Positions 3,096-19,207 of a stretch of DNA of 20,518 nucleotides are shown here, one piece after another. The DNA comes from a virus (taxonomy: Duplodnaviria > Heunggongvirae > Uroviricota > Caudoviricetes). The DNA lies in IMG/VR virus record IMGVR_UViG_2740892214_000001. One strand, 5' to 3'. Positions within the stretch are counted from its first letter, which is position 1. Every line of letters starts with the position of its first letter. The translations under genes were made by a program, and so were the position numbers. Below the pieces are notes generated by a model, which did not search any database, was not told the origin of the DNA, and saw only the letters and a program-made list of their open reading frames with translations.

Positions 3096-3425
3096 CTATG
3101 CCACGACCTGTTCAAAATCTGCCGTTATGGTTACCCACAGCGCCCCCACGCTTGCCGACCATTTACGACAAACCACCCTGATCGGCTTCCAGTCATAAGG
3201 TGGCGTCCACTGAAATGCGCGGACGCCACCGTGCCGTTCCAGAAAGGCTTTCAAAGATGGGTGTTCACATTTACGAACACGTATCGTCACGCTGTAAGTC
3301 GACAACTGGTTATTCAGTCCCGCCGCACGACGCTGTTCATAACCATCGCCCAGCTTCACTGTCACCACTTTCGGCTCTGATACCACATTCATATCCGGGC
3401 GCACTTTCCAGTGAAACGTCTCCAT
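3096..3425 (-). CDS. M: Minor tail protein M
   Basis: 109-aa ORF METFHWKVRPDM...GDGYEQRRAAGLN...FQWTPPYDWKPIRVVCRKWS...FEQVV, lambda gpM-like; start ATG shares one base with the H stop (TAATG). Confidence 0.9.
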   Translation of the reverse strand: METFHWKVRPDMNVVSEPKVVTVKLGDGYEQRRAAGLNNQLSTYSVTIRVRKCEHPSLKAFLERHGGVRAFQWTPPYDWKPIRVVCRKWSASVGALWVTITADFEQVVA

Positions 3426-13156: not shown

Positions 13157-13368
13157 CAGAACCTCGCCAGCCGGTACCCGGGATGCCCCCGTCGTCGTGT
13201 AATCAGAGCCGCAAGGCGGCGCTCCCACTCCTGCCGTCCCTGCCGGATCTCAGATAAGTTTTCCATGGTCATCTGCTGACCATTAAAGGTGACGGATTTT
13301 CCGTCCAGCACCGCCATTTCAGCTTCCATATAACGCTGAATCATGGCTTCGATATCATTCTGGTTCAT
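13156..13368 (-). CDS. gpW-like head-tail joining / head completion protein
   Basis: 70 aa (MNQNDIEAMIQRYMEAEMAVLDGKSVTFNGQQMT...RRRGHPGY); size, position between large terminase and portal, and the C-terminal RRRG motif resemble lambda gpW. Start ATG overlaps the large terminase stop (ATGA). Confidence 0.55.
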   Translation of the reverse strand: MNQNDIEAMIQRYMEAEMAVLDGKSVTFNGQQMTMENLSEIRQGRQEWERRLAALITRRRGHPGYRLARF

Positions 13369-15467
13369 AACCATCCTCCGGAAGTCAGCCAGGGGTTAAC
13401 ATCGTCAGTTACTGTTTTCTTCCGTTTTTGTTTTTTAACAGGCGTGGATACCGGTTCCGGTGAGGATGACGGTTCGGTACTGTCCTGGACACACTCCAGC
13501 CAGGTTTCCCGGCTCGCCCACTCCGGTGCATCCGGCCAGCGGATCTTTTCGTATCCATGCAGAATGACCAGAGCCTCGGCATACACCATCAGGTCAAAAG
13601 CTTCGTTGGCACCGCGACCCGGCTTACTCCATTTCCCGTCACTGCTCCGCTCTTCATACGTCAGTTCGTCGTAAAACCAGCTCCCCAGCCAGTCAGGGAA
13701 ATGCACATAGCCGGGACCTGGCGAGTCACGCCATAACGCGTTATTCACCCGGTCTTTCAGTGCATCCGTCTGAAGAAGCCAGAGCGGCACATCACCTGCG
13801 GCCTGCGCCCGTCGGCCCGTTCGTCCGGTGTTATCAGGGAATGTACGGGTGATCAGTTTTGCGCGCCGGATGCTGTCGCCCTTAAACAGGTAAATACGTT
13901 TACCAAGGCCATCACGACGGCAACGACGCCAGAATTTATAGGCATTATCAGTGACCCCGTCTTCACCGCCGGAGTCCACCGCCATTGCCATCAGTCGCAT
14001 TTGTTGAGAAGGATCGGAGGCCAGCGGCCAGCTTTTATGAAAAACATCCGTCAGCAGGACATCCCAGTCTTCCGGATAGCTGGCCGGATCAATTCGCTGG
14101 CTCTCCCCGTCGCTGTCACCGCGCAATGACTGCGTGATGTTGTAACGATCAATAATCCAGCGTTCGCCACGGCTGCCATAGCCCGTTACCTGAACCACAA
14201 AACGGCGATGACGTCCCGCCTGCACATCCACTGTCGCCACAAGGAAATTAACGCCATCCGGCACACTGCGGGAAGGAACTGGCTCTGCCCGCTGCTCAAG
14301 CAGTTCACTTTTTCGTTGCTCCATGCTGGCGCGGGGAAGATAAGGTAATCCCCAGTCGGTATTGATAACCGTCTTGAGTGTTTCTTCACTTCCGGTTGTC
14401 TCGTATTCCTGTTCTGCAGTAAGCAGTTTGTAAACGAGTTGCGAGAGTGTCTGGTAAGCAGCTGCCGGACCCTCCATCCAGAATGACGCAATACGTGAGC
14501 GTCGGGGATCACCATAACGACTGCCATCCGCATTGATGGATTCACCATCCCGCAACCAGACCCCACGTCCGTTCAGCTCACGTTTGTGTTCAGGCATAAT
14601 CCGTCCTGAACAGGAAGGACACTGAATATAAGCCGCCTCACTTGCCAGCACGGGATCGGCAATATCACGGAAACCAGCAACCACATCGCCGCAGGGCTGA
14701 AAATACTCACCACAGTGTGGACAGGGCCAGTACCAGCGACGGCGATCACCACGGTTATAGAGCGACAGGATCCCCGTGGTTGGTGGAGCCTCATGCGGTG
14801 AAGTCCGTCGCCATTTCACATCCTTCACATCCCTGCCGGGGGAACTCTCCACCAACGTCATACCGCTGGACATAAATGTGGTGGTACGTTTTGAGGCAAG
14901 AGAGAAGGCATCCCCCTCGCCATCAATATCTTCCGGAAAACGGTCATAATCCGTCAGCGCGACGCATTTATAATCTGATGAGGACATGATATTGACTGAC
15001 GGCCAGCCGATTTTCAGGTAGTTGCCAGCAAGGAATGTTCTGTCATAAACGTTGTTGTCATTTTTGTTCGGACTCAGGCGACTGACCACTTCCGGGCTGA
15101 CGCGAAACGTTCTGGCGAGTCGTTTTTTGGAGTGTTCGCGGGCTTTTTCCTCCGTCATCTGAATGATCAGCATATCAGCAGGATCGCAAATCACGTTGTA
15201 AATCACCCAGCCGTCAATCAGGCCGATAGTCTTGCCGGTTCGTGCCGGGCCAACAAATATCACTGCGTCGTATTCACGCGAGGCCAGGCAGTTCATCGGC
15301 TCAATAACATACGGTGCCACCAGCGGATCCCACGGGACTGAGTTCCCGGCCCCCATGGGCACCCGCATATACTGAGCAACGGCATCAGCAACCCGCATTC
15401 GTCTCGGTGCGCGAAGGATATAACCTGAATCGGTTCGTGCTGCCTTTGCGGTTTCCTGATTCAGCAT
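13365..15467 (-). CDS. Terminase large subunit (GpA family)
   Basis: 700 aa; Walker A-like GPARTGKT; CPHCGEYFQP and WIIDRYNI segments resemble lambda gpA CPHCGEE and WLIDRQII; start ATG overlaps the small terminase stop (TAATG). Confidence 0.9.
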   Translation of the reverse strand: MLNQETAKAARTDSGYILRAPRRMRVADAVAQYMRVPMGAGNSVPWDPLVAPYVIEPMNCLASREYDAVIFVGPARTGKTIGLIDGWVIYNVICDPADMLIIQMTEEKAREHSKKRLARTFRVSPEVVSRLSPNKNDNNVYDRTFLAGNYLKIGWPSVNIMSSSDYKCVALTDYDRFPEDIDGEGDAFSLASKRTTTFMSSGMTLVESSPGRDVKDVKWRRTSPHEAPPTTGILSLYNRGDRRRWYWPCPHCGEYFQPCGDVVAGFRDIADPVLASEAAYIQCPSCSGRIMPEHKRELNGRGVWLRDGESINADGSRYGDPRRSRIASFWMEGPAAAYQTLSQLVYKLLTAEQEYETTGSEETLKTVINTDWGLPYLPRASMEQRKSELLEQRAEPVPSRSVPDGVNFLVATVDVQAGRHRRFVVQVTGYGSRGERWIIDRYNITQSLRGDSDGESQRIDPASYPEDWDVLLTDVFHKSWPLASDPSQQMRLMAMAVDSGGEDGVTDNAYKFWRRCRRDGLGKRIYLFKGDSIRRAKLITRTFPDNTGRTGRRAQAAGDVPLWLLQTDALKDRVNNALWRDSPGPGYVHFPDWLGSWFYDELTYEERSSDGKWSKPGRGANEAFDLMVYAEALVILHGYEKIRWPDAPEWASRETWLECVQDSTEPSSSPEPVSTPVKKQKRKKTVTDDVNPWLTSGGWL

Positions 15468-15961
15468 TACTCCTCCTGCTGTAATTCCTCCTCATCATCC
15501 GCACCTGCTTCAGTCACCCGCAGGGCTATCTGATCGCGCAGATCATCAATAATGGACTGAACACGGCTCACAGCGGCAGGCTGCAGACCGCAGTCACGTT
15601 CAAGAATATCCGGTAATGTCTCCAGCACCTGCACGACCGCTTTTGCCCAGATGGCAAACTCCCGTCTGACATCACTGGCCGGAATGAGTTGTGCCGTTTC
15701 CTGTTCGAACTTAAGACGCTCACGTTCAGACTGATACCAGGCTTTGCGCTCATGCGCGTCCATTTCGCCTTCTGCAACCGGCGGTGGTAATGCCAGAAAT
15801 GCCGACACAATATCAACCACCCGATAAAGCTTGAGGTTGCTTTCATGCCCCCCTGCAACGGGTAGATTTTGCAGCCTTGCCGCAGCAGTCTGGCGATGTA
15901 CACCTGACAGTGCCGCCAGTTGACTGATATTAAGCGTCAGATTTTTTAACTCTCGATCCAT
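15467..15961 (-). CDS. Terminase small subunit (Nu1-like, N-terminal HTH, acidic C-terminus)
   Basis: 164 aa immediately upstream of and coupled to the large terminase; N-terminal LNISQLAALSGVHRQTAAARL is HTH-like; GGAG SD 7 nt upstream; lies about 175 nt downstream of the cosN candidate. Confidence 0.7.
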   Translation of the reverse strand: MDRELKNLTLNISQLAALSGVHRQTAAARLQNLPVAGGHESNLKLYRVVDIVSAFLALPPPVAEGEMDAHERKAWYQSERERLKFEQETAQLIPASDVRREFAIWAKAVVQVLETLPDILERDCGLQPAAVSRVQSIIDDLRDQIALRVTEAGADDEEELQQEE

Positions 15962-16064
15962 ACCCGCTCCAGAATGTTTTAAACATGCATCTTGCGAACA
16001 ACTTTAGGCAAACGGTGTTAGTGATGAACAAAAAACAATCAAAATCGACACTACAAAAATAAAA

Positions 16065-16152
16065 CCACTGTAATATCAATCTATTACAGTAGTGGTGATG
16101 ACGAATGAAATTTCAAAAACTAGCCTTTTTCCGCGACGCTCCCGCCCCGTGG
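16065..16152 (-). other. Candidate cos site: cosN-like sequence (12-nt cohesive-end candidate GGGCGGGAGCGT on minus strand, plus 16136..16147) and cosB-like AT-rich region with a palindrome (16065..16095)
   Basis: Minus strand ACGGGGCGGGAGCGTCGCGG matches lambda cosN region ACGGGGCGGCGACCTCGCGG (as recalled) at 16 of 20 positions; followed by an AT-rich segment and a shared TTCGTCAT motif; distance to the terminase start is about 175 nt (lambda about 190). Confidence 0.55.
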
Positions 16153-16414
16153 CAGGCCACCCCACCGGAAGGACCCGCCAAAATGAGAGTGATTATCACC
16201 ATTGCTGATGAATAAATTGATGAAAATCATTGAAACGCCTTTCAGCAAGATAACGGCGACGGTCGTTGTTGAACTCCGTAACTCTGCTACTAAGGTTAAA
16301 AGCATGGCCATCTTTTGCCACCGGCAAATCTTCAATGGATTTCCCCTGCCGGTTTTTTATTCCTCACATTATCGCAGCCCCTCAGTGAAGGGCTGCTGTA
16401 ATGCCTGCTGTTAC

Positions 16415-16798
16415 TCAGTAACGACCGCGCCTTCCGGTAATTTCATACCGGCAAATACCGGACAGCCCGGGGATCGTTATCTGCAGCTGGTTAGCCAGGG
16501 AGTTAATCTCAGCGACCAACACTGGCTTCGTATAGCGCCATGCCGCCAGCCCTTGTCCACAGAAGCTCGCCATATCTTTTTTCTGATCAAACTCATGACA
16601 CTTCATATTGAGCTGCGCACTTAAGCTGTTGCGATGCTGAAGTTCTCCGGTGAAGTAGTCATCCAGGACTTTATAGGCTGCATATTTAAATCCGGGGTTT
16701 AGCCATGCTGCATAATCATAAGCAACAAACTTCCCGCCATATGTTCCACCGTGTACACCGCGCTCAGTAAAAACCACAGATTCGTGTTTTTTCTCCAT
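16415..16798 (-). CDS. Hypothetical protein (127 aa) between Rz and cos; possible KilA-N-like fragment
   Basis: ORF begins directly after the Rz TAG stop in the same frame, with no SD. Segment GTYGGKFVAYDYAAWLNPGF loosely resembles the conserved KilA-N motif (GTWVHP.LA..FA.WLSPEF) as recalled. Status as a functional gene is uncertain. Confidence 0.4.
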   Translation of the reverse strand: MEKKHESVVFTERGVHGGTYGGKFVAYDYAAWLNPGFKYAAYKVLDDYFTGELQHRNSLSAQLNMKCHEFDQKKDMASFCGQGLAAWRYTKPVLVAEINSLANQLQITIPGLSGICRYEITGRRGRY

Positions 16799-17266
16799 CT
16801 ACTTAATGCGCTGGGTGCGGATATATTCCTGCGCCCCTTCCAGTTGCTTCTGCATCGTCATCAACCGTTCTCTGAGGGTGAAATAATCCCGTTCAGCGGT
16901 GTCTGCCAGTCGGGGGCTGGTTGCATTATCCATGCTGGTGGGTCCGGTGGCTTCACGCACGGCTGCGGAGCAACTGGCATTGACCCGCAGGCGCTTACGA
17001 CCAGCGGCAACATCAGCGCGCAGAGTTTCATTTTCAGTTTTCGCATCGGCTAACTCCTTCGTGTATTTTGCATCGATCGCAGCAACATCACGCTGACGCT
17101 GCTGCATGTCAGCGATGGTGGCGGTCGCCTGCTTCAGCTCACTGACTTTTTTATCACGCTGTTCTTTGTAGGCGATGGCGTTATCACGGTAATGATTAAC
17201 AGCCCATGACAGGCAGGCGATGATACAAATAACCAGAGCGGAGATAATCGCGGTTACTCTGCTCAT
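16799..17266 (-). CDS. Rz: Rz i-spanin
   Basis: 155 aa; [36 protein letters not shown]...[27 protein letters not shown] matches lambda Rz; start overlaps the R stop (ATGA). Confidence 0.95.
16861..17046 (-). CDS. Rz1: Rz1 o-spanin lipoprotein, embedded in the +1 frame of Rz
   Basis: 61 aa with signal/lipobox LVVSAC and proline-rich [30 protein letters not shown], matching lambda Rz1 as recalled. Confidence 0.85.
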
Positions 17267-17739
17267 ACCTCAATCTCTCTGACCGTTCCGCCTGCTTCTT
17301 TGAATTTTGCAATCAGGCTGTCAACTTTATGCTCGAACTGACCATAACCAGCGCCCGGTAGTGAAGCCCAGATATTGCTGCAACGGTCGATAGCCTGACG
17401 AATATCACCGCGATCAATCATCGGTAAAGCGCCACGCTCTTTAATCTGCTGCAGAGCTACAGCGTCCTGGCTTTCTGGAGAAAAATCTTTCAGGCCAAGC
17501 TGTTTACGGTAAGCATCCCACCAGCGTGAAAGAAGCTGGTAACGTCCGGCGGCTGTTGATTTGAGTTTGGGGTTTAGCGTGACAAGTTTGCGAGGATGAT
17601 CGGAGTAATCCGTGAATAACTCACCACCTACAATAACGTCGTAGCCGTGATTGCGGGTTGGCTGTCGCCCGTTATCCGTTCCTTCTGACCACGCCAACAT
17701 ATCGAGGAAAGCTTTACGCTGGGAATTTAGTACCTGCAT
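17263..17739 (-). CDS. R: Endolysin R (lytic transglycosylase)
   Basis: 158 aa, near-identical to lambda R from residue 6 onward ([57 protein letters not shown]...); AAGGAG SD upstream. Confidence 0.95.
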
Positions 17740-17742
17740 AAA

Positions 17743-18078
17743 TTACTCCTTAGAGCCACCAAACTTGTTACCGATTACTCGCATTGCAGCCCCACGAATA
17801 GCATCGACACCGATCAGCCCCACGCCGCCACCAATGGCAACAGAAAGTGATTTAGGCCATCCGACATACTCAAGAGCGGATGCAAAGGTCAGCGTCAGAG
17901 CGCCACAGAGCAAAATCTCGAGCGTTTTTCGCTTCCAGCCACCACCACCGCCAAAATAGGCGATGCGCAAACCAGCCATAACGATCGACATAATCACTGC
18001 ACCCAGCGGCGTGTCTCCACGCCACCAGCTCTGAAACAACTCCAGCCAGTCCGGCCAGGTATTTGGGTTATGAGGCAT
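17743..18078 (-). CDS. Class I holin, 3 predicted TMDs (not lambda S-like in sequence)
   Basis: Start trimmed to ATG 18076..18078 (MPHNPNTW...) because the track ORF N-terminal extension contains the terminator hairpin. Three hydrophobic segments; immediately upstream of R with a 3-nt gap. Confidence 0.6.
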   Translation of the reverse strand: MPHNPNTWPDWLELFQSWWRGDTPLGAVIMSIVMAGLRIAYFGGGGGWKRKTLEILLCGALTLTFASALEYVGWPKSLSVAIGGGVGLIGVDAIRGAAMRVIGNKFGGSKE

Positions 18079-18121
18079 TTCGTCATCTCTCACCTCGCGA
18101 TATTTGCGGGTGCAGTGTTGG

Positions 18122-18147
18122 AAATAAAAAGGCCACGCAACGTGGCC
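18122..18147 (-). terminator. Intrinsic terminator between the methyltransferase and the holin (minus strand); possible tR'-like element
   Basis: Perfect 7-bp stem GGCCACG-UUG-CGUGGCC followed on the minus strand by UUUUUAUUU; begins 8 nt after the methyltransferase stop. Confidence 0.6.
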
Positions 18148-18154
18148 ACCAGAA

Positions 18155-19207
18155 TTATTTCCCCACCAGTTCACTTACCTCTTTCACCGTCTGATTAAAC
18201 CGCTCTGACTCAAGTTCAACACCTAACGCCCGACGCCCCAGCGCCATTGCTGCTTTTATTGTGGAACCGGATCCCATAAAGAAATCAGCAACCAGATCAC
18301 CAGGGCGACTACTGGCATTGATTATTTGCCGGAGCATATCCGCCGGTTTCTCGCACGGATGTTTACCCGGGTAGAACTGAACGGGTTTATGCGTCCAGAC
18401 ATCGGTATAAGGCACGGAGACTGATACGGAGAAATAGCGCCGGAGAGATTTAAACTCATCCAGCAATTCAGAATATTTGCGATTCAGTGAATCATAAGAT
18501 GCCACCAGCTGGTGGTGTGGTTGTTCCAGTTGTTGTTCCTGAAACTTCTCTGCCGCTATACGGGAAAACAGTGCCTGTAACTTCCGATAGTCAGCCTCAT
18601 TCGGCAACTGCCACTGACTGGCACCAAACCAGTGGGAAACCATATTTTTCTTACCTGTGGCTTCGGCAATTTGTTTTGCCGTTATACCCAGTTCGGCACG
18701 AGCATCCCTGAAATACGATATCAGCGGTGCCATTATGTGCTGTTTGAGTTCCCTTTCTTTTGCTGCATAGCCGTCACTTTTGCCGCGATATGGCCCCTGG
18801 TAATGTTCAGCAAACAGAACGCGCTCTGTGGCAGGAAAATATGCGCGCAGACTTTCTTTATTACACCCATTCCAACGTCCGGACGGCTTCGCCCAGATGA
18901 TATGGTTAAGCACGTTGAAACGTTCACGCATCATGATCTCAATATCAGATGCCAGGCGATGCCCACAGAACAGATAAAGGCTTCCGGCAGGTTTTAACAC
19001 CCGCCAGAACTGGGCCAGACAGTGGTCCAGCCACTTAAGGTAATCTTCGTCCCCTTTCCACTGATTGTCCCAACCGTTGGGTTTCACCTTGAAGTACGGC
19101 GGATCGGTAACAATCAGGTCAATGGAATCATCAGGCAGGGACTGAATAAAATGCAGGCAATCAGCGTTGATTAAATCAACACTGTTTATTTTTACAGTAT
19201 TTTTCAT
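18155..19207 (-). CDS. DNA amino-methyltransferase, beta-class (N6-adenine or N4-cytosine), orphan
   Basis: 350 aa; DPPY motif (IVTDPPYF) near the N-terminus and AdoMet-binding FxGxG (DFFMGSGST) near the C-terminus; no adjacent endonuclease-like ORF; weak SD. Confidence 0.85.
   Translation of the reverse strand: MKNTVKINSVDLINADCLHFIQSLPDDSIDLIVTDPPYFKVKPNGWDNQWKGDEDYLKWLDHCLAQFWRVLKPAGSLYLFCGHRLASDIEIMMRERFNVLNHIIWAKPSGRWNGCNKESLRAYFPATERVLFAEHYQGPYRGKSDGYAAKERELKQHIMAPLISYFRDARAELGITAKQIAEATGKKNMVSHWFGASQWQLPNEADYRKLQALFSRIAAEKFQEQQLEQPHHQLVASYDSLNRKYSELLDEFKSLRRYFSVSVSVPYTDVWTHKPVQFYPGKHPCEKPADMLRQIINASSRPGDLVADFFMGSGSTIKAAMALGRRALGVELESERFNQTVKEVSELVGK

Follow-up and report, generated by a model that had tools for sequence, protein, structure and literature searches.

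In the window (the whole stretch of DNA analysed, 20,518 nt), every feature examined, namely Rz, Rz1, the ORF, its joints and the hairpin, lies on the minus strand, which the original prediction had left unnamed. Rz (i-spanin, 155 aa; 16799..17266) matches Pfam Phage_lysis (E 7.4e-50) and the Rz-like spanin family phrog_13 (E 1.6e-77), and Rz1 (o-spanin lipoprotein, 61 aa; 16861..17046; phrog_3198, E 3.3e-29) is encoded inside it in another frame. The Rz stop codon TAG (16799-16801) is followed immediately 3' by an in-frame ATG (16796-16798), the minus strand across the end of Rz reading ...ATT AAG TAG ATG GAG AAA AAA CAC.... This ATG opens an ORF of 127 codons (16415..16798, including the TGA stop at 16415-16417), which has the orientation of the late operon and lacks a promoter and a Shine-Dalgarno sequence of its own. 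The original prediction had noted the adjacency of TAG and ATG in one frame, as well as the lack of a Shine-Dalgarno sequence; the minus-strand sequence bears out the former, and the sequence upstream of the ATG (CCGCACCCAGCGCATTAAGTAG) contains no Shine-Dalgarno-like purine run. It had also given the ORF the span 16336-16801; the ORF is real and occupies 16415-16798, and the 79 nt from 16336 onwards are downstream sequence that includes the hairpin. The hairpin itself (GCAGCCC-N9-GGGCTGC) was found after the ORF stop exactly where it had been placed, at 16374-16396.

An identical 384-nt CDS is present in E. coli JE86-ST05, where it encodes the hypothetical protein WP_000412156.1 (RefSeq). This protein, orf60 of phage cdtI (YP_001272573.1) and Orf23 of phi458 (UYE91756.1) represent one and the same truncated, chimaeric ORF, with DNA about 99% identical and, as in the window, a place between Rz and cos. 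In cdtI and phi458 the Rz TAG is followed by CTG and the ORF is annotated from a GTG at codon 8 (120 aa), whereas in the window and in JE86 strains it is followed by ATG and the annotation is of 127 aa; the cdtI record comments on its ORF that 'Start codon is not identified'. In the PHROG search the ORF matched phrog_10441, a family of unknown function, end to end (E 1.7e-76; ORF residues 3-127 on profile positions 2-126 of 126), and this family is evidently this very truncated ORF. The ORF covers only profile positions 64-175 of the 273 of PHROG 129 (Rha-Ant-type regulators, 'Bro network'); it is not a complete multi-domain member of that family, as the N-terminal DNA-binding part is missing. 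An NCBIfam search returned noise only.

The ORF had been proposed to resemble, at its N-terminus, the C-terminal half of a KilA-N domain. This resemblance is real but partial: residues 15-50 align with positions 71-106 of the 107 of the Pfam KilA-N profile (PF04383) at 15.9 bits (E 0.012), below the gathering cutoff of 23.8 bits. The same search revealed a domain that had not been foreseen, ORF11CD3 (PF10549), which is complete in the ORF (residues 58-110 on profile positions 1-54 of 54; 51 bits, E 1.7e-13, for a gathering score of 25 bits) and is found elsewhere in many domain combinations. For comparison, the full-length hkbK protein of phage HK620 scored 58.5 bits for KilA-N (residues 7-101, profile positions 6-106) and 50.5 bits for ORF11CD3. 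The KilA-N part of the ORF is therefore homologous by descent, with about the first half of the domain lost, and is not a complete domain. In the AlphaFold2 model of a full-length homologue (pLDDT 83), the part deleted from the ORF holds strands 2-6 and 9-13 and helices 21-28, 36-41 and 43-54. The model of the window ORF contains four confident helices, with the ORF11CD3 part helical at pLDDT 73-88 and its residues 58-110 forming a long helical hairpin at pLDDT about 80-88, and residues 1-15 and 116-127 are below pLDDT 50. A Foldseek search of the full-length homologue model against the PDB gave nothing significant (best E 0.42); the APSES domain of yeast Mbp1 ranked second (E 0.73), which is compatible with the known link between KilA-N and APSES domains.

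HK620 hkbK (NP_112071.1), gp49 of Stx2-phage 1717 and 'kilA' of phage 2851 are 165-aa KilA-N + ORF11CD3 proteins encoded downstream of Rz. Phages carrying hkbK-type genes are lambdoid and P22-like, and in them the gene is flanked by the lysis cassette on one side and the packaging genes on the other, as is the window ORF. The relationship is one of direct descent: the ORF is 97% identical at the amino acid level to HK620 hkbK and 93% identical to Stx2-1717 gp49, in both cases over residues 52-163, and residues 1-51 of these proteins have no counterpart in it. The hkbK-derived segment (16464..16798) comprises codons 52 to 162/163 of the 165-aa gene. Unlike hkbK, the window ORF lacks its own ribosome-binding site and the spacer of 200-340 nt with a terminator-like hairpin, and in place of the natural hkbK stop and the overlapping hkbL it has a 15-residue out-of-frame tail. 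The nearest full-length alleles differ from the ORF by one nucleotide in 333 nt. This single difference, AAC to AAA at ORF codon 4, is nonsynonymous (N to K), and the position reads AAC in all full-length copies (113/113). In the literature searched, hkbK was not mentioned and ORF11CD3 appeared only within lists of 'Bro network' domains.

Of three options raised originally, translational coupling, amber read-through and a remnant, the last had been favoured, in the form of a gene truncated by recombination where the lysis cassette ends. Comparison of the Rz-to-cos interval with that of related prophages upholds this suggestion and reveals descent from an hkbK-type gene together with two joints; as judged from these alignments, the ORF is a recently created hkbK-type fragment, cut at both ends by recombination. 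That the truncation affects both ends, and that the last 15 residues are the 3' end of another gene read out of frame, goes beyond what had been proposed.

The 5' joint, of which Rz is the left-hand partner, fuses the Rz stop codon straight to hkbK codon 52, with the three bases AGC shared between the two partners (3-nt microhomology). The junction sequence is GAG CTG GAG in HK620 and Stx2-1717, TAG CTG GAG in phi458 and TAG ATG GAG in the window, the ATG (16796..16798) being derived by a C-to-A change from the CTG that encodes Leu52 of the hkbK-type parent. The Rz TAG is followed by CTG in phi458 and cdtI, and the same holds for 48 of the 54 further copies sampled. Its first base was C in 39 sampled copies and A in 7, and C in the nine metagenome copies (9/9). 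By source, ATG was present at 6 of 42 IMG/VR loci, at none of 9 metagenome loci and in 2 of 100 E. coli genome records; the last count is that of records carrying the joint that were 100% identical across it, and about 98 of the 100 have CTG. ATG is restricted to a small sublineage that includes the window; the TAG-ATG adjacency is present in the window, and about 98% of E. coli carriers of the joint have CTG at this place. This distribution of alleles indicates that ATG is a rare derived point mutation and that CTG is ancestral and far commoner. The alternative start, the GTG at codon 8, has its GGAG 15 nt away, and there is no well-spaced Shine-Dalgarno sequence before any alternative start.

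A simple internal deletion in one phage was considered as the origin of the 5' joint and was rejected for the sampled data, because a check of the 900 nt upstream of 122 full-length hkbK loci did not find this Rz end at any of them. The same 5' joint was also seen with the native hkbK 3' end and hkbL (loci L008 and L029).

The ORF continues in frame with Rz and a TAG alone separates them, so that amber read-through, one of the possibilities raised originally, would produce a 283-aa Rz-KilA' fusion that might play a role in lysis; supE or supF laboratory hosts would make such a fusion by amber suppression. However, a junction falls in frame by chance one time in three, and all copies descend from one junction event. 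The extension would come from a cytoplasmic DNA-binding regulator and yet be placed on the C-terminus of Rz, a part that lies in the periplasm and has to contact Rz1. No promoting structure or known RNA family was found at the stop, the extension is not under purifying selection (pN/pS about 1, see below), and the same Rz allele end precedes unrelated sequence in other phages; phage phi467, for example, shares the Rz 3' end (...ATTAAGTAG) but not what comes after it. The cargo of the Rz-to-cos slot varies: phi467 carries an HNH endonuclease there, HK620 carries hkbK and hkbL, and the UMNF18 prophage carries a 98-aa gene. On these grounds the read-through proposal is unsupported, and its probability would seem negligible.

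The 3' joint was localized by a three-way DNA alignment of the window, UMNF18 and HK620 to a 7-nt microhomology, CCGGGCT (16464..16470), and the megablast match to the UMNF18-type module stops at 16470. The sequence from the joint onwards (16367..16470) is the 3'-end fragment of an unrelated hypothetical gene of 98 aa, of the E. coli UMNF18 WP_000450338.1 type, together with its hairpin (94% DNA identity). ORF codons 113-127 and the stop codon (16415-16462) are the wrong frame of this fragment: its native frame ends in ...HPGCPVFAGMKLPEGAVVTE before the stop, and the frame used in the window reads SGICRYEITGRRGRY and then stops. In a variant with a 1-nt deletion (L011, L039 and L177) the entire tail becomes PVFAGMKLPEGAVVTE, again followed by a stop. 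The small module that carries the 98-aa gene recurs in phiP27, Fels-1 and Klebsiella phages.

The hairpin at 16374..16396 was inherited with the fragment of the 98-aa gene, and is kept in UMNF18 with one loop difference. Its stem comprises 10 bp and its loop 3 nt, and it starts 18 nt past the ORF stop; the RNA fold of 16335-16420 has a free energy of -29.2 kcal/mol (z -4.05 versus shuffles). After the hairpin the minus strand continues with GAUAAUGUGAGG and the plus strand with UGUAAUGCC; neither contains a U-tract, and because the U-tract is missing the hairpin is not a canonical intrinsic terminator. A terminator scan, which permits loops of up to 8 nt, did not report it, and an Rfam search of 15900-17300 with E values up to 1 gave no match. 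A role as terminator of the ORF was rejected in view of the missing U-tract and of the arrival of the hairpin with a third-party fragment.

The region might still be kept for a cis element, the hairpin serving to terminate transcription, to process or stabilize RNA, or, close to cos, in packaging. Its stability, far above that of shuffled sequence, and its conservation in a module that is found in several phages would fit such a role, but a terminator at this place would stop late transcription from reaching the terminase genes, and some 225 nt separate the hairpin from the region of cos cleavage (near 16148-16152), which puts it outside the usual cosQ/cosN/cosB span of lambda cos. Moreover, a cis element would account only for the 100-nt third-party fragment and not for the hkbK-derived ORF, and we regard this explanation as highly improbable.

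About 100 of 5426 E. coli genomes (about 2% of complete genomes) carried the truncated allele, in at least two downstream contexts. The 5' joint gave no hit in a GTDB scan with one genome per species, a result that has no bearing on its spread outside E. coli. The reading frame was unbroken in every complete copy sampled (about 50), which speaks neither for nor against function, because at such a small divergence an intact frame is expected by chance. Copies with the chimaeric tail showed 2 synonymous and 7 nonsynonymous segregating sites (pN/pS about 1), and all truncated copies 6 and 7, compared with 47 and 7 in full-length hkbK clusters of similar divergence (pN/pS about 0.04); the truncated and full-length counts differ with Fisher p values of 0.0002 to 0.009, for a crude count of segregating sites in which the numbers are small and phylogenetically non-independent. 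Rz, used as a matched control in the same loci and with close alleles only, gave 8:4 versus 4:4 (p 0.65), counts that are too small. The 5' parts of Rz are mosaic among the loci. There is no sign of a selected function of the ORF.

Several observations count against a remnant. The ORF11CD3 domain is complete and predicted to fold, the frame is intact in all sampled copies, the allele has spread, with two 3' contexts, and the ATG arose at the very position that would permit coupling to Rz, being adjacent to the Rz stop in the window. The many domain combinations of ORF11CD3 are also consistent with an autonomous module. The ORF could accordingly be read as a functional small late protein, an ORF11CD3-only product made by TAG-ATG reinitiation or, elsewhere, from the GTG at codon 8, which might for instance bind and poison full-length KilA-N/ORF11CD3 ('Bro network') regulators of co-resident prophages. 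We consider such a protein unlikely. About 98% of carriers have CTG instead of ATG and alternative starts that lack a well-spaced Shine-Dalgarno sequence; truncated copies have a pN/pS of about 1 compared with about 0.04 for full-length genes; the tail is out of frame and is rewritten by a frameshift in three copies; the sole fixed change strikes a codon that is invariant among full-length genes; and the event is too young for the intact frame to be informative. The bolder proposal that the fragment interferes by heteromerisation with regulators of competing or co-resident prophages, the CTG-to-ATG change being an adaptive gain of Rz coupling, appears very unlikely.

In conclusion, the ORF is a prophage remnant of an ordinary kind, neither a new gene nor a device for read-through; most probably it is what was left of a gene where a mosaic joint formed in a cdtI/phi458-type lambdoid prophage. 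An hkbK-type gene (165 aa; KilA-N 7-101, ORF11CD3 109-161) would normally lie a few hundred bases past Rz with its own ribosome-binding site. Illegitimate recombination would have joined the last base of the Rz stop codon (AGC shared) to hkbK codon 52, so that hkbK lost its start codon, the Shine-Dalgarno sequence before it and roughly the first half of KilA-N. A second recombination, within CCGGGCT, would have swapped the hkbK stop and the downstream hkbL for the last 100 nt or so of the 98-aa gene, and because this end was joined out of frame, 15 unrelated codons run up to a fortuitous TGA.

As the remnant sits in the Q-antiterminated late transcript that runs from the lysis cassette to cos/terminase, it would, by analogy with lambda, be transcribed passively with the late operon. 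Most carriers are without a good start codon, CTG coming first and then the GTG at codon 8 (GGAG 15 nt off). In the window sublineage, the C-to-A change would have created TAG-ATG, at which ribosomes that have just finished Rz could start again and yield a protein of 127 aa; the ORF is thus possibly translated there by termination-reinitiation. For this product four helices and disordered ends are predicted, and it would lack a DNA-binding domain.

For annotation, the 'hypothetical protein', 'DNA-binding protein' or 'protein KilA' that follows Rz in cdtI-, phi458- and related prophages of E. coli is an hkbK-type gene truncated twice and provided with an out-of-frame tail, and annotated starts differ (ATG or GTG at codon 8) because most copies have no real start. 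The locus exemplifies the joints of lambdoid mosaicism, one where an essential gene ends (the Rz stop) and one inside dispensable cargo, with microhomologies of 3 and 7 nt. Should the minority reading be true, this would be a small case of a new coupled gene born from a recombination scar and caught in the act; beyond annotation, the importance of the finding is small.

Like lambda bor and the other accessory genes ('morons') of the Rz-to-cos interval, to which it had been likened, the ORF sits in the variable interval where the lysis cassette ends. The likeness is limited to position: the ORF has no sequence kinship with Bor, no Bor family being present among the Pfam, PHROG and NCBIfam matches, and the ORF, which as a bor gene would be expected on the strand opposite the late operon, is co-oriented with the late genes and is a fragment, not a complete cargo gene. 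The TAG-ATG of the window, without a Shine-Dalgarno sequence, has the same geometry as coupled gene pairs with adjacent stop and start codons, at which termination-reinitiation is known in bacteria. It differs from such pairs in that it is a point mutation on an accidental joint, at which most relatives carry CTG.

The window ORF, a 127-codon reading frame at 16415-16798 on the minus strand, is most likely a remnant; it is a chimaera built on part of an hkbK-type gene that has been cut short at both ends. The original prediction had extended it from 16336 without stating a strand; the ORF is real, but that start coordinate takes in downstream sequence. Its 127 aa are encoded directly after Rz (16799-17266, minus strand, 155 aa; Pfam Phage_lysis, E 7e-50), in which Rz1 (16861-17046, minus strand) is embedded, and it is followed by the cos region (about 16148-16152) and, on the minus strand, by the DUF1441-type small terminase (15467-15961) and large terminase (13365-15467) genes. 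At the Rz end the minus strand reads ATT AAG TAG ATG GAG AAA AAA CAC, in agreement with the predicted ATG, in frame and directly after the Rz amber codon; as also predicted, no purine-rich Shine-Dalgarno sequence was found in the preceding 20 nt.

Pfam detected a complete ORF11CD3 domain in the window ORF (residues 58-110, 51 bits). The KilA-N resemblance noticed originally was real but sub-threshold (15.9 bits) and restricted to profile positions 71-106/107; the ORF is a member of ORF11CD3 but a fragment, not a member, of KilA-N. Among PHROGs, it matched the 126-residue family phrog_10441 end to end, and only the middle of phrog_129, a 273-position regulator family. Phages phi458 and cdtI, together with about 90-100 complete E. 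coli genomes, match the window interval at about 99% identity. In many other lambdoid or P22-like phages a 165-aa 'KilA-N domain-containing protein' is encoded 3' of Rz, for example HK620 hkbK, Stx2 phage 1717 gp49, phage 2851 'kilA' and PhiR49_1 'KilA-N-ORF11CD3'. In full-length hkbK, KilA-N (58.5 bits) spans residues 7-101 and ORF11CD3 spans residues 109-161. The window ORF aligned to residues 52-163 of the 165-aa protein (97% identity with HK620, 93% with 1717), and neither alignment revealed a counterpart of hkbK residues 1-51, which bears out the earlier proposal of a truncated gene left by recombination.

AlphaFold2 modelled a full-length homologue (P0007; mean pLDDT 83) with strands 2-6 and 9-13, followed by helices 21-28, 36-41 and 43-54, short strands 60-61 and 71-72, helices 74-84 and 86-101, and the ORF11CD3 helical hairpin (103-130 and 134-156). 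According to this model, the truncation, by taking away everything ahead of residue 52, deprives the DNA-binding domain of two strands and three helices. The window ORF model (mean pLDDT 71) has four helices within residues 20-105, and pLDDT falls below 50 at residues 1-15, the orphaned strand region, and 116-127, the out-of-frame tail. A Foldseek search against the PDB returned nothing significant.

In HK620, unlike in the window, 342 nt and a terminator-like hairpin separate hkbK from Rz upstream of it, and hkbK is preceded by an AAGG-type ribosome-binding site of its own. This canonical hairpin (3142-3161, minus strand, of the HK620 locus), AGCCTCGCATTCGCGGGGCT then TTTTATATCT, stands between Rz and full-length hkbK, and similar hairpins precede hkbK in two other loci (L072, L100); these hairpins suggest that hkbK stands apart from the lysis cassette as a moron would. 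A literature search on the parental hkbK-type gene found nothing. Further natural rearrangements of such genes were encountered in P0012 (Escherichia sp. E4742, 215 aa), P0002 (191 aa) and P0006 (217 aa); among these forms, one has a PF10828-containing C-terminus in place of the ORF11CD3 end, one has PF09669 (Phage_pRha) fused to ORF11CD3, and one is N-terminally extended. They fit the domain shuffling described as the 'Bro network' (PMC10111431).

At the 5' joint, HK620 and 1717 read GCC GAG CTG GAG AAA AAC, phi458 reads AAG TAG CTG GAG AAA AAA and the window AAG TAG ATG GAG AAA AAA. The stop codon of Rz is thus fused directly to codon 52 of hkbK; CTG (Leu) is the ancestral state of the first codon, and the window ATG is a C-to-A change from it. 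In phage phi467 the identical Rz allele end, ATTAAGTAG, continues into CCTTTTT and a gene for an HNH endonuclease, so AGC is all that the two parents share at the crossover. This Rz end was found within 900 nt upstream of full-length hkbK in none of 122 IMG/VR loci, so that a simple deletion is seen in no sampled genome and the 5' joint is a junction between modules. The original prediction had also considered amber read-through of Rz into the window ORF. The in-frame arrangement is the one thing in its favour, but it has a one-in-three chance in a single junction event. The C-terminus of Rz is periplasmic and is the end that must meet Rz1; read-through would place a piece of a cytoplasmic regulator there, and we consider it extremely unlikely.

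We scanned for the exact 5' joint pattern, leaving the variable base free, and found 42 loci in IMG/VR, 9 in metagenomes and none in GTDB (one genome per species). The variable base was C in 36 IMG/VR loci, all 9 metagenome loci, phi458, cdtI and E. coli 51008369SK1, and A in 6 IMG/VR loci, E. coli JE86-ST05 and the window. A hundred E. coli records spanned the joint; among the matches listed, only JE86-ST05 and JE86-ST02 were 100% identical and the other 58 had one mismatch. The A-allele copies form one sublineage, because they have an identical Rz allele in common. The one mildly interesting possibility, that with its gain of an ATG this sublineage shows a small coupled gene being born, is improbable.

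At the 3' joint, hkbK homology ends at ...ATC CCC GGG CT. From there to just beyond the hairpin (16367-16470), the window matches at 94% identity a segment of the E. coli UMNF18 prophage that consists of the 3' end of an unrelated hypothetical gene (98 aa) and the hairpin downstream of it; the crossover lies within a 7-nt microhomology, CCGGGCT (16464-16470). Translated in the frame of the donor, these bases give H P G C P V F A G M K L P E G A V V T E stop; in the window ORF the same bases, one frame off, give S G I C R Y E I T G R R G R Y stop. In two IMG/VR loci (L011, L039) and one metagenome locus (L177), one T is lost at the equivalent of window ~16460 (CTGTCCGG to CTGCCGG), which moves the tail into the donor frame and gives a 128-aa product ending PVFAGMKLPEGAVVTE*; the tail therefore tolerates a complete change of sequence. 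In E. coli 51008369SK1 (L008) and in L029, the same 5' joint occurs together with a native hkbK end (PG*) and with hkbL, the downstream neighbour of hkbK, so the two joints were separate events. The donor gene (2542-2838 of the UMNF18 locus) and hkbL (85 aa; 2242-2499 of the HK620 locus) matched no Pfam family; both are uncharacterised cargo in the slot between lysis cassette and packaging genes.

The hairpin 3' of the ORF lies exactly where predicted (16374-16396), with a 10-bp stem and a 3-nt loop; its stability far exceeds that of shuffled sequence (z -4.05). Since the UMNF18 identity runs through it, it belongs to the third-party fragment. It has no adjacent U-tract on either strand, and the terminator scan did not call it. 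The small module with this hairpin recurs in phiP27, Fels-1 and Klebsiella phages. A cis-acting role for it, although compatible with a remnant, is very improbable. The sole terminator-like site in 15900-17300, where about one is expected from shuffled sequence, is at 16064-16093 (minus strand), a 12-pair A+T-rich hairpin then TTTATTTTTG, between the cos region and the small terminase gene. Positions 16199-16366 were seen only in phi458 and cdtI, and 16100-16198 form a conserved cos-proximal block kept in mEp460, mEp213 and VT1-Sakai-type phages. At about 16148-16152, presumably where cos is cut, the records of cdtI and mEp460_4F5 come to an end. The whole Rz-to-cos interval is a patchwork. 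In phi458, a 41-aa Orf24 is annotated at the equivalent of 16196-16321.

Upstream on the minus strand lie the lambda-R-type endolysin (17263-17739), the holin (within 17743-18174) and a DNA methyltransferase (18155-19207). Likeness to phi458, cdtI and most E. coli matches ends precisely where Rz starts (query position 1267), and the two phages carry a 498-nt RrrD-type lysozyme; the R/Rz boundary (17266/17267) is another mosaic joint, at a gene border. The window endolysin (158 aa), common to HK620, ECP1 and Dewey, had no Pfam match at E up to 1. The mechanical call for the holin ORF (17743-18174, minus strand) is 143 aa from GTG; the Phage_holin_3_1 profile spans residues 35-137 only, so the real S-type start is probably an internal ATG near residue 33.

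The age of the truncation was estimated by comparing the hkbK-derived 333 nt, with CTG restored, with full-length alleles. The nearest, in eight IMG/VR loci, differ by 1 nt, AAC to AAA in ORF codon 4 (N to K; AAC in 113/113 full-length copies), so the truncation is very recent; an intact frame in about 50 copies is the chance expectation. From full-length alleles overall, the window differs on average by 18.2 synonymous and 3.0 nonsynonymous changes, which shows strong purifying selection on the parental gene. Segregating sites over the 336-nt core numbered 2 synonymous and 7 nonsynonymous in 42 chimaeric-tail copies (pN/pS 0.98), 6 and 7 in all 44 truncated copies, and 47 and 7 in full-length hkbK (clusters linked at <=5 differences). 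Fisher's test against full-length hkbK gave p 0.0002 for chimaeric-tail copies and p 0.003 for all truncated copies (0.009 without the start-codon change). By these counts, constraint was relaxed after truncation; the direction is clear, though the method is crude and the numbers for the truncated set are small. The remnant evolves without detectable constraint. A functional ORF11CD3-only protein is unlikely.

By analogy with lambda, a Q-dependent late transcript running from the lysis genes through cos to the terminase genes would include the remnant. Most carriers lack a proper start. In the ATG sublineage, ribosomes ending Rz could reinitiate on the AUG next to the stop and yield some product of 127 aa, which could not bind DNA through KilA-N and would probably have no selected activity. 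PGAP takes this ATG as the start in JE86; the GTG at codon 8 is used for cdtI orf60 (record note 'Start codon is not identified'), phi458 Orf23 and the PGAP 'protein KilA', and GGAG lies 15 nt upstream of that GTG, a spacing too long for a normal Shine-Dalgarno sequence.

RefSeq already holds a protein identical to that of the window ORF (WP_000412156.1), phages cdtI and phi458 have the near-identical ORF annotated, and a PHROG of its own exists for it. The original comparison with lambda bor holds for position, but the ORF is otherwise unrelated to Bor; a gene fragment at a mosaic joint of a lambdoid phage is a well-known kind of object.
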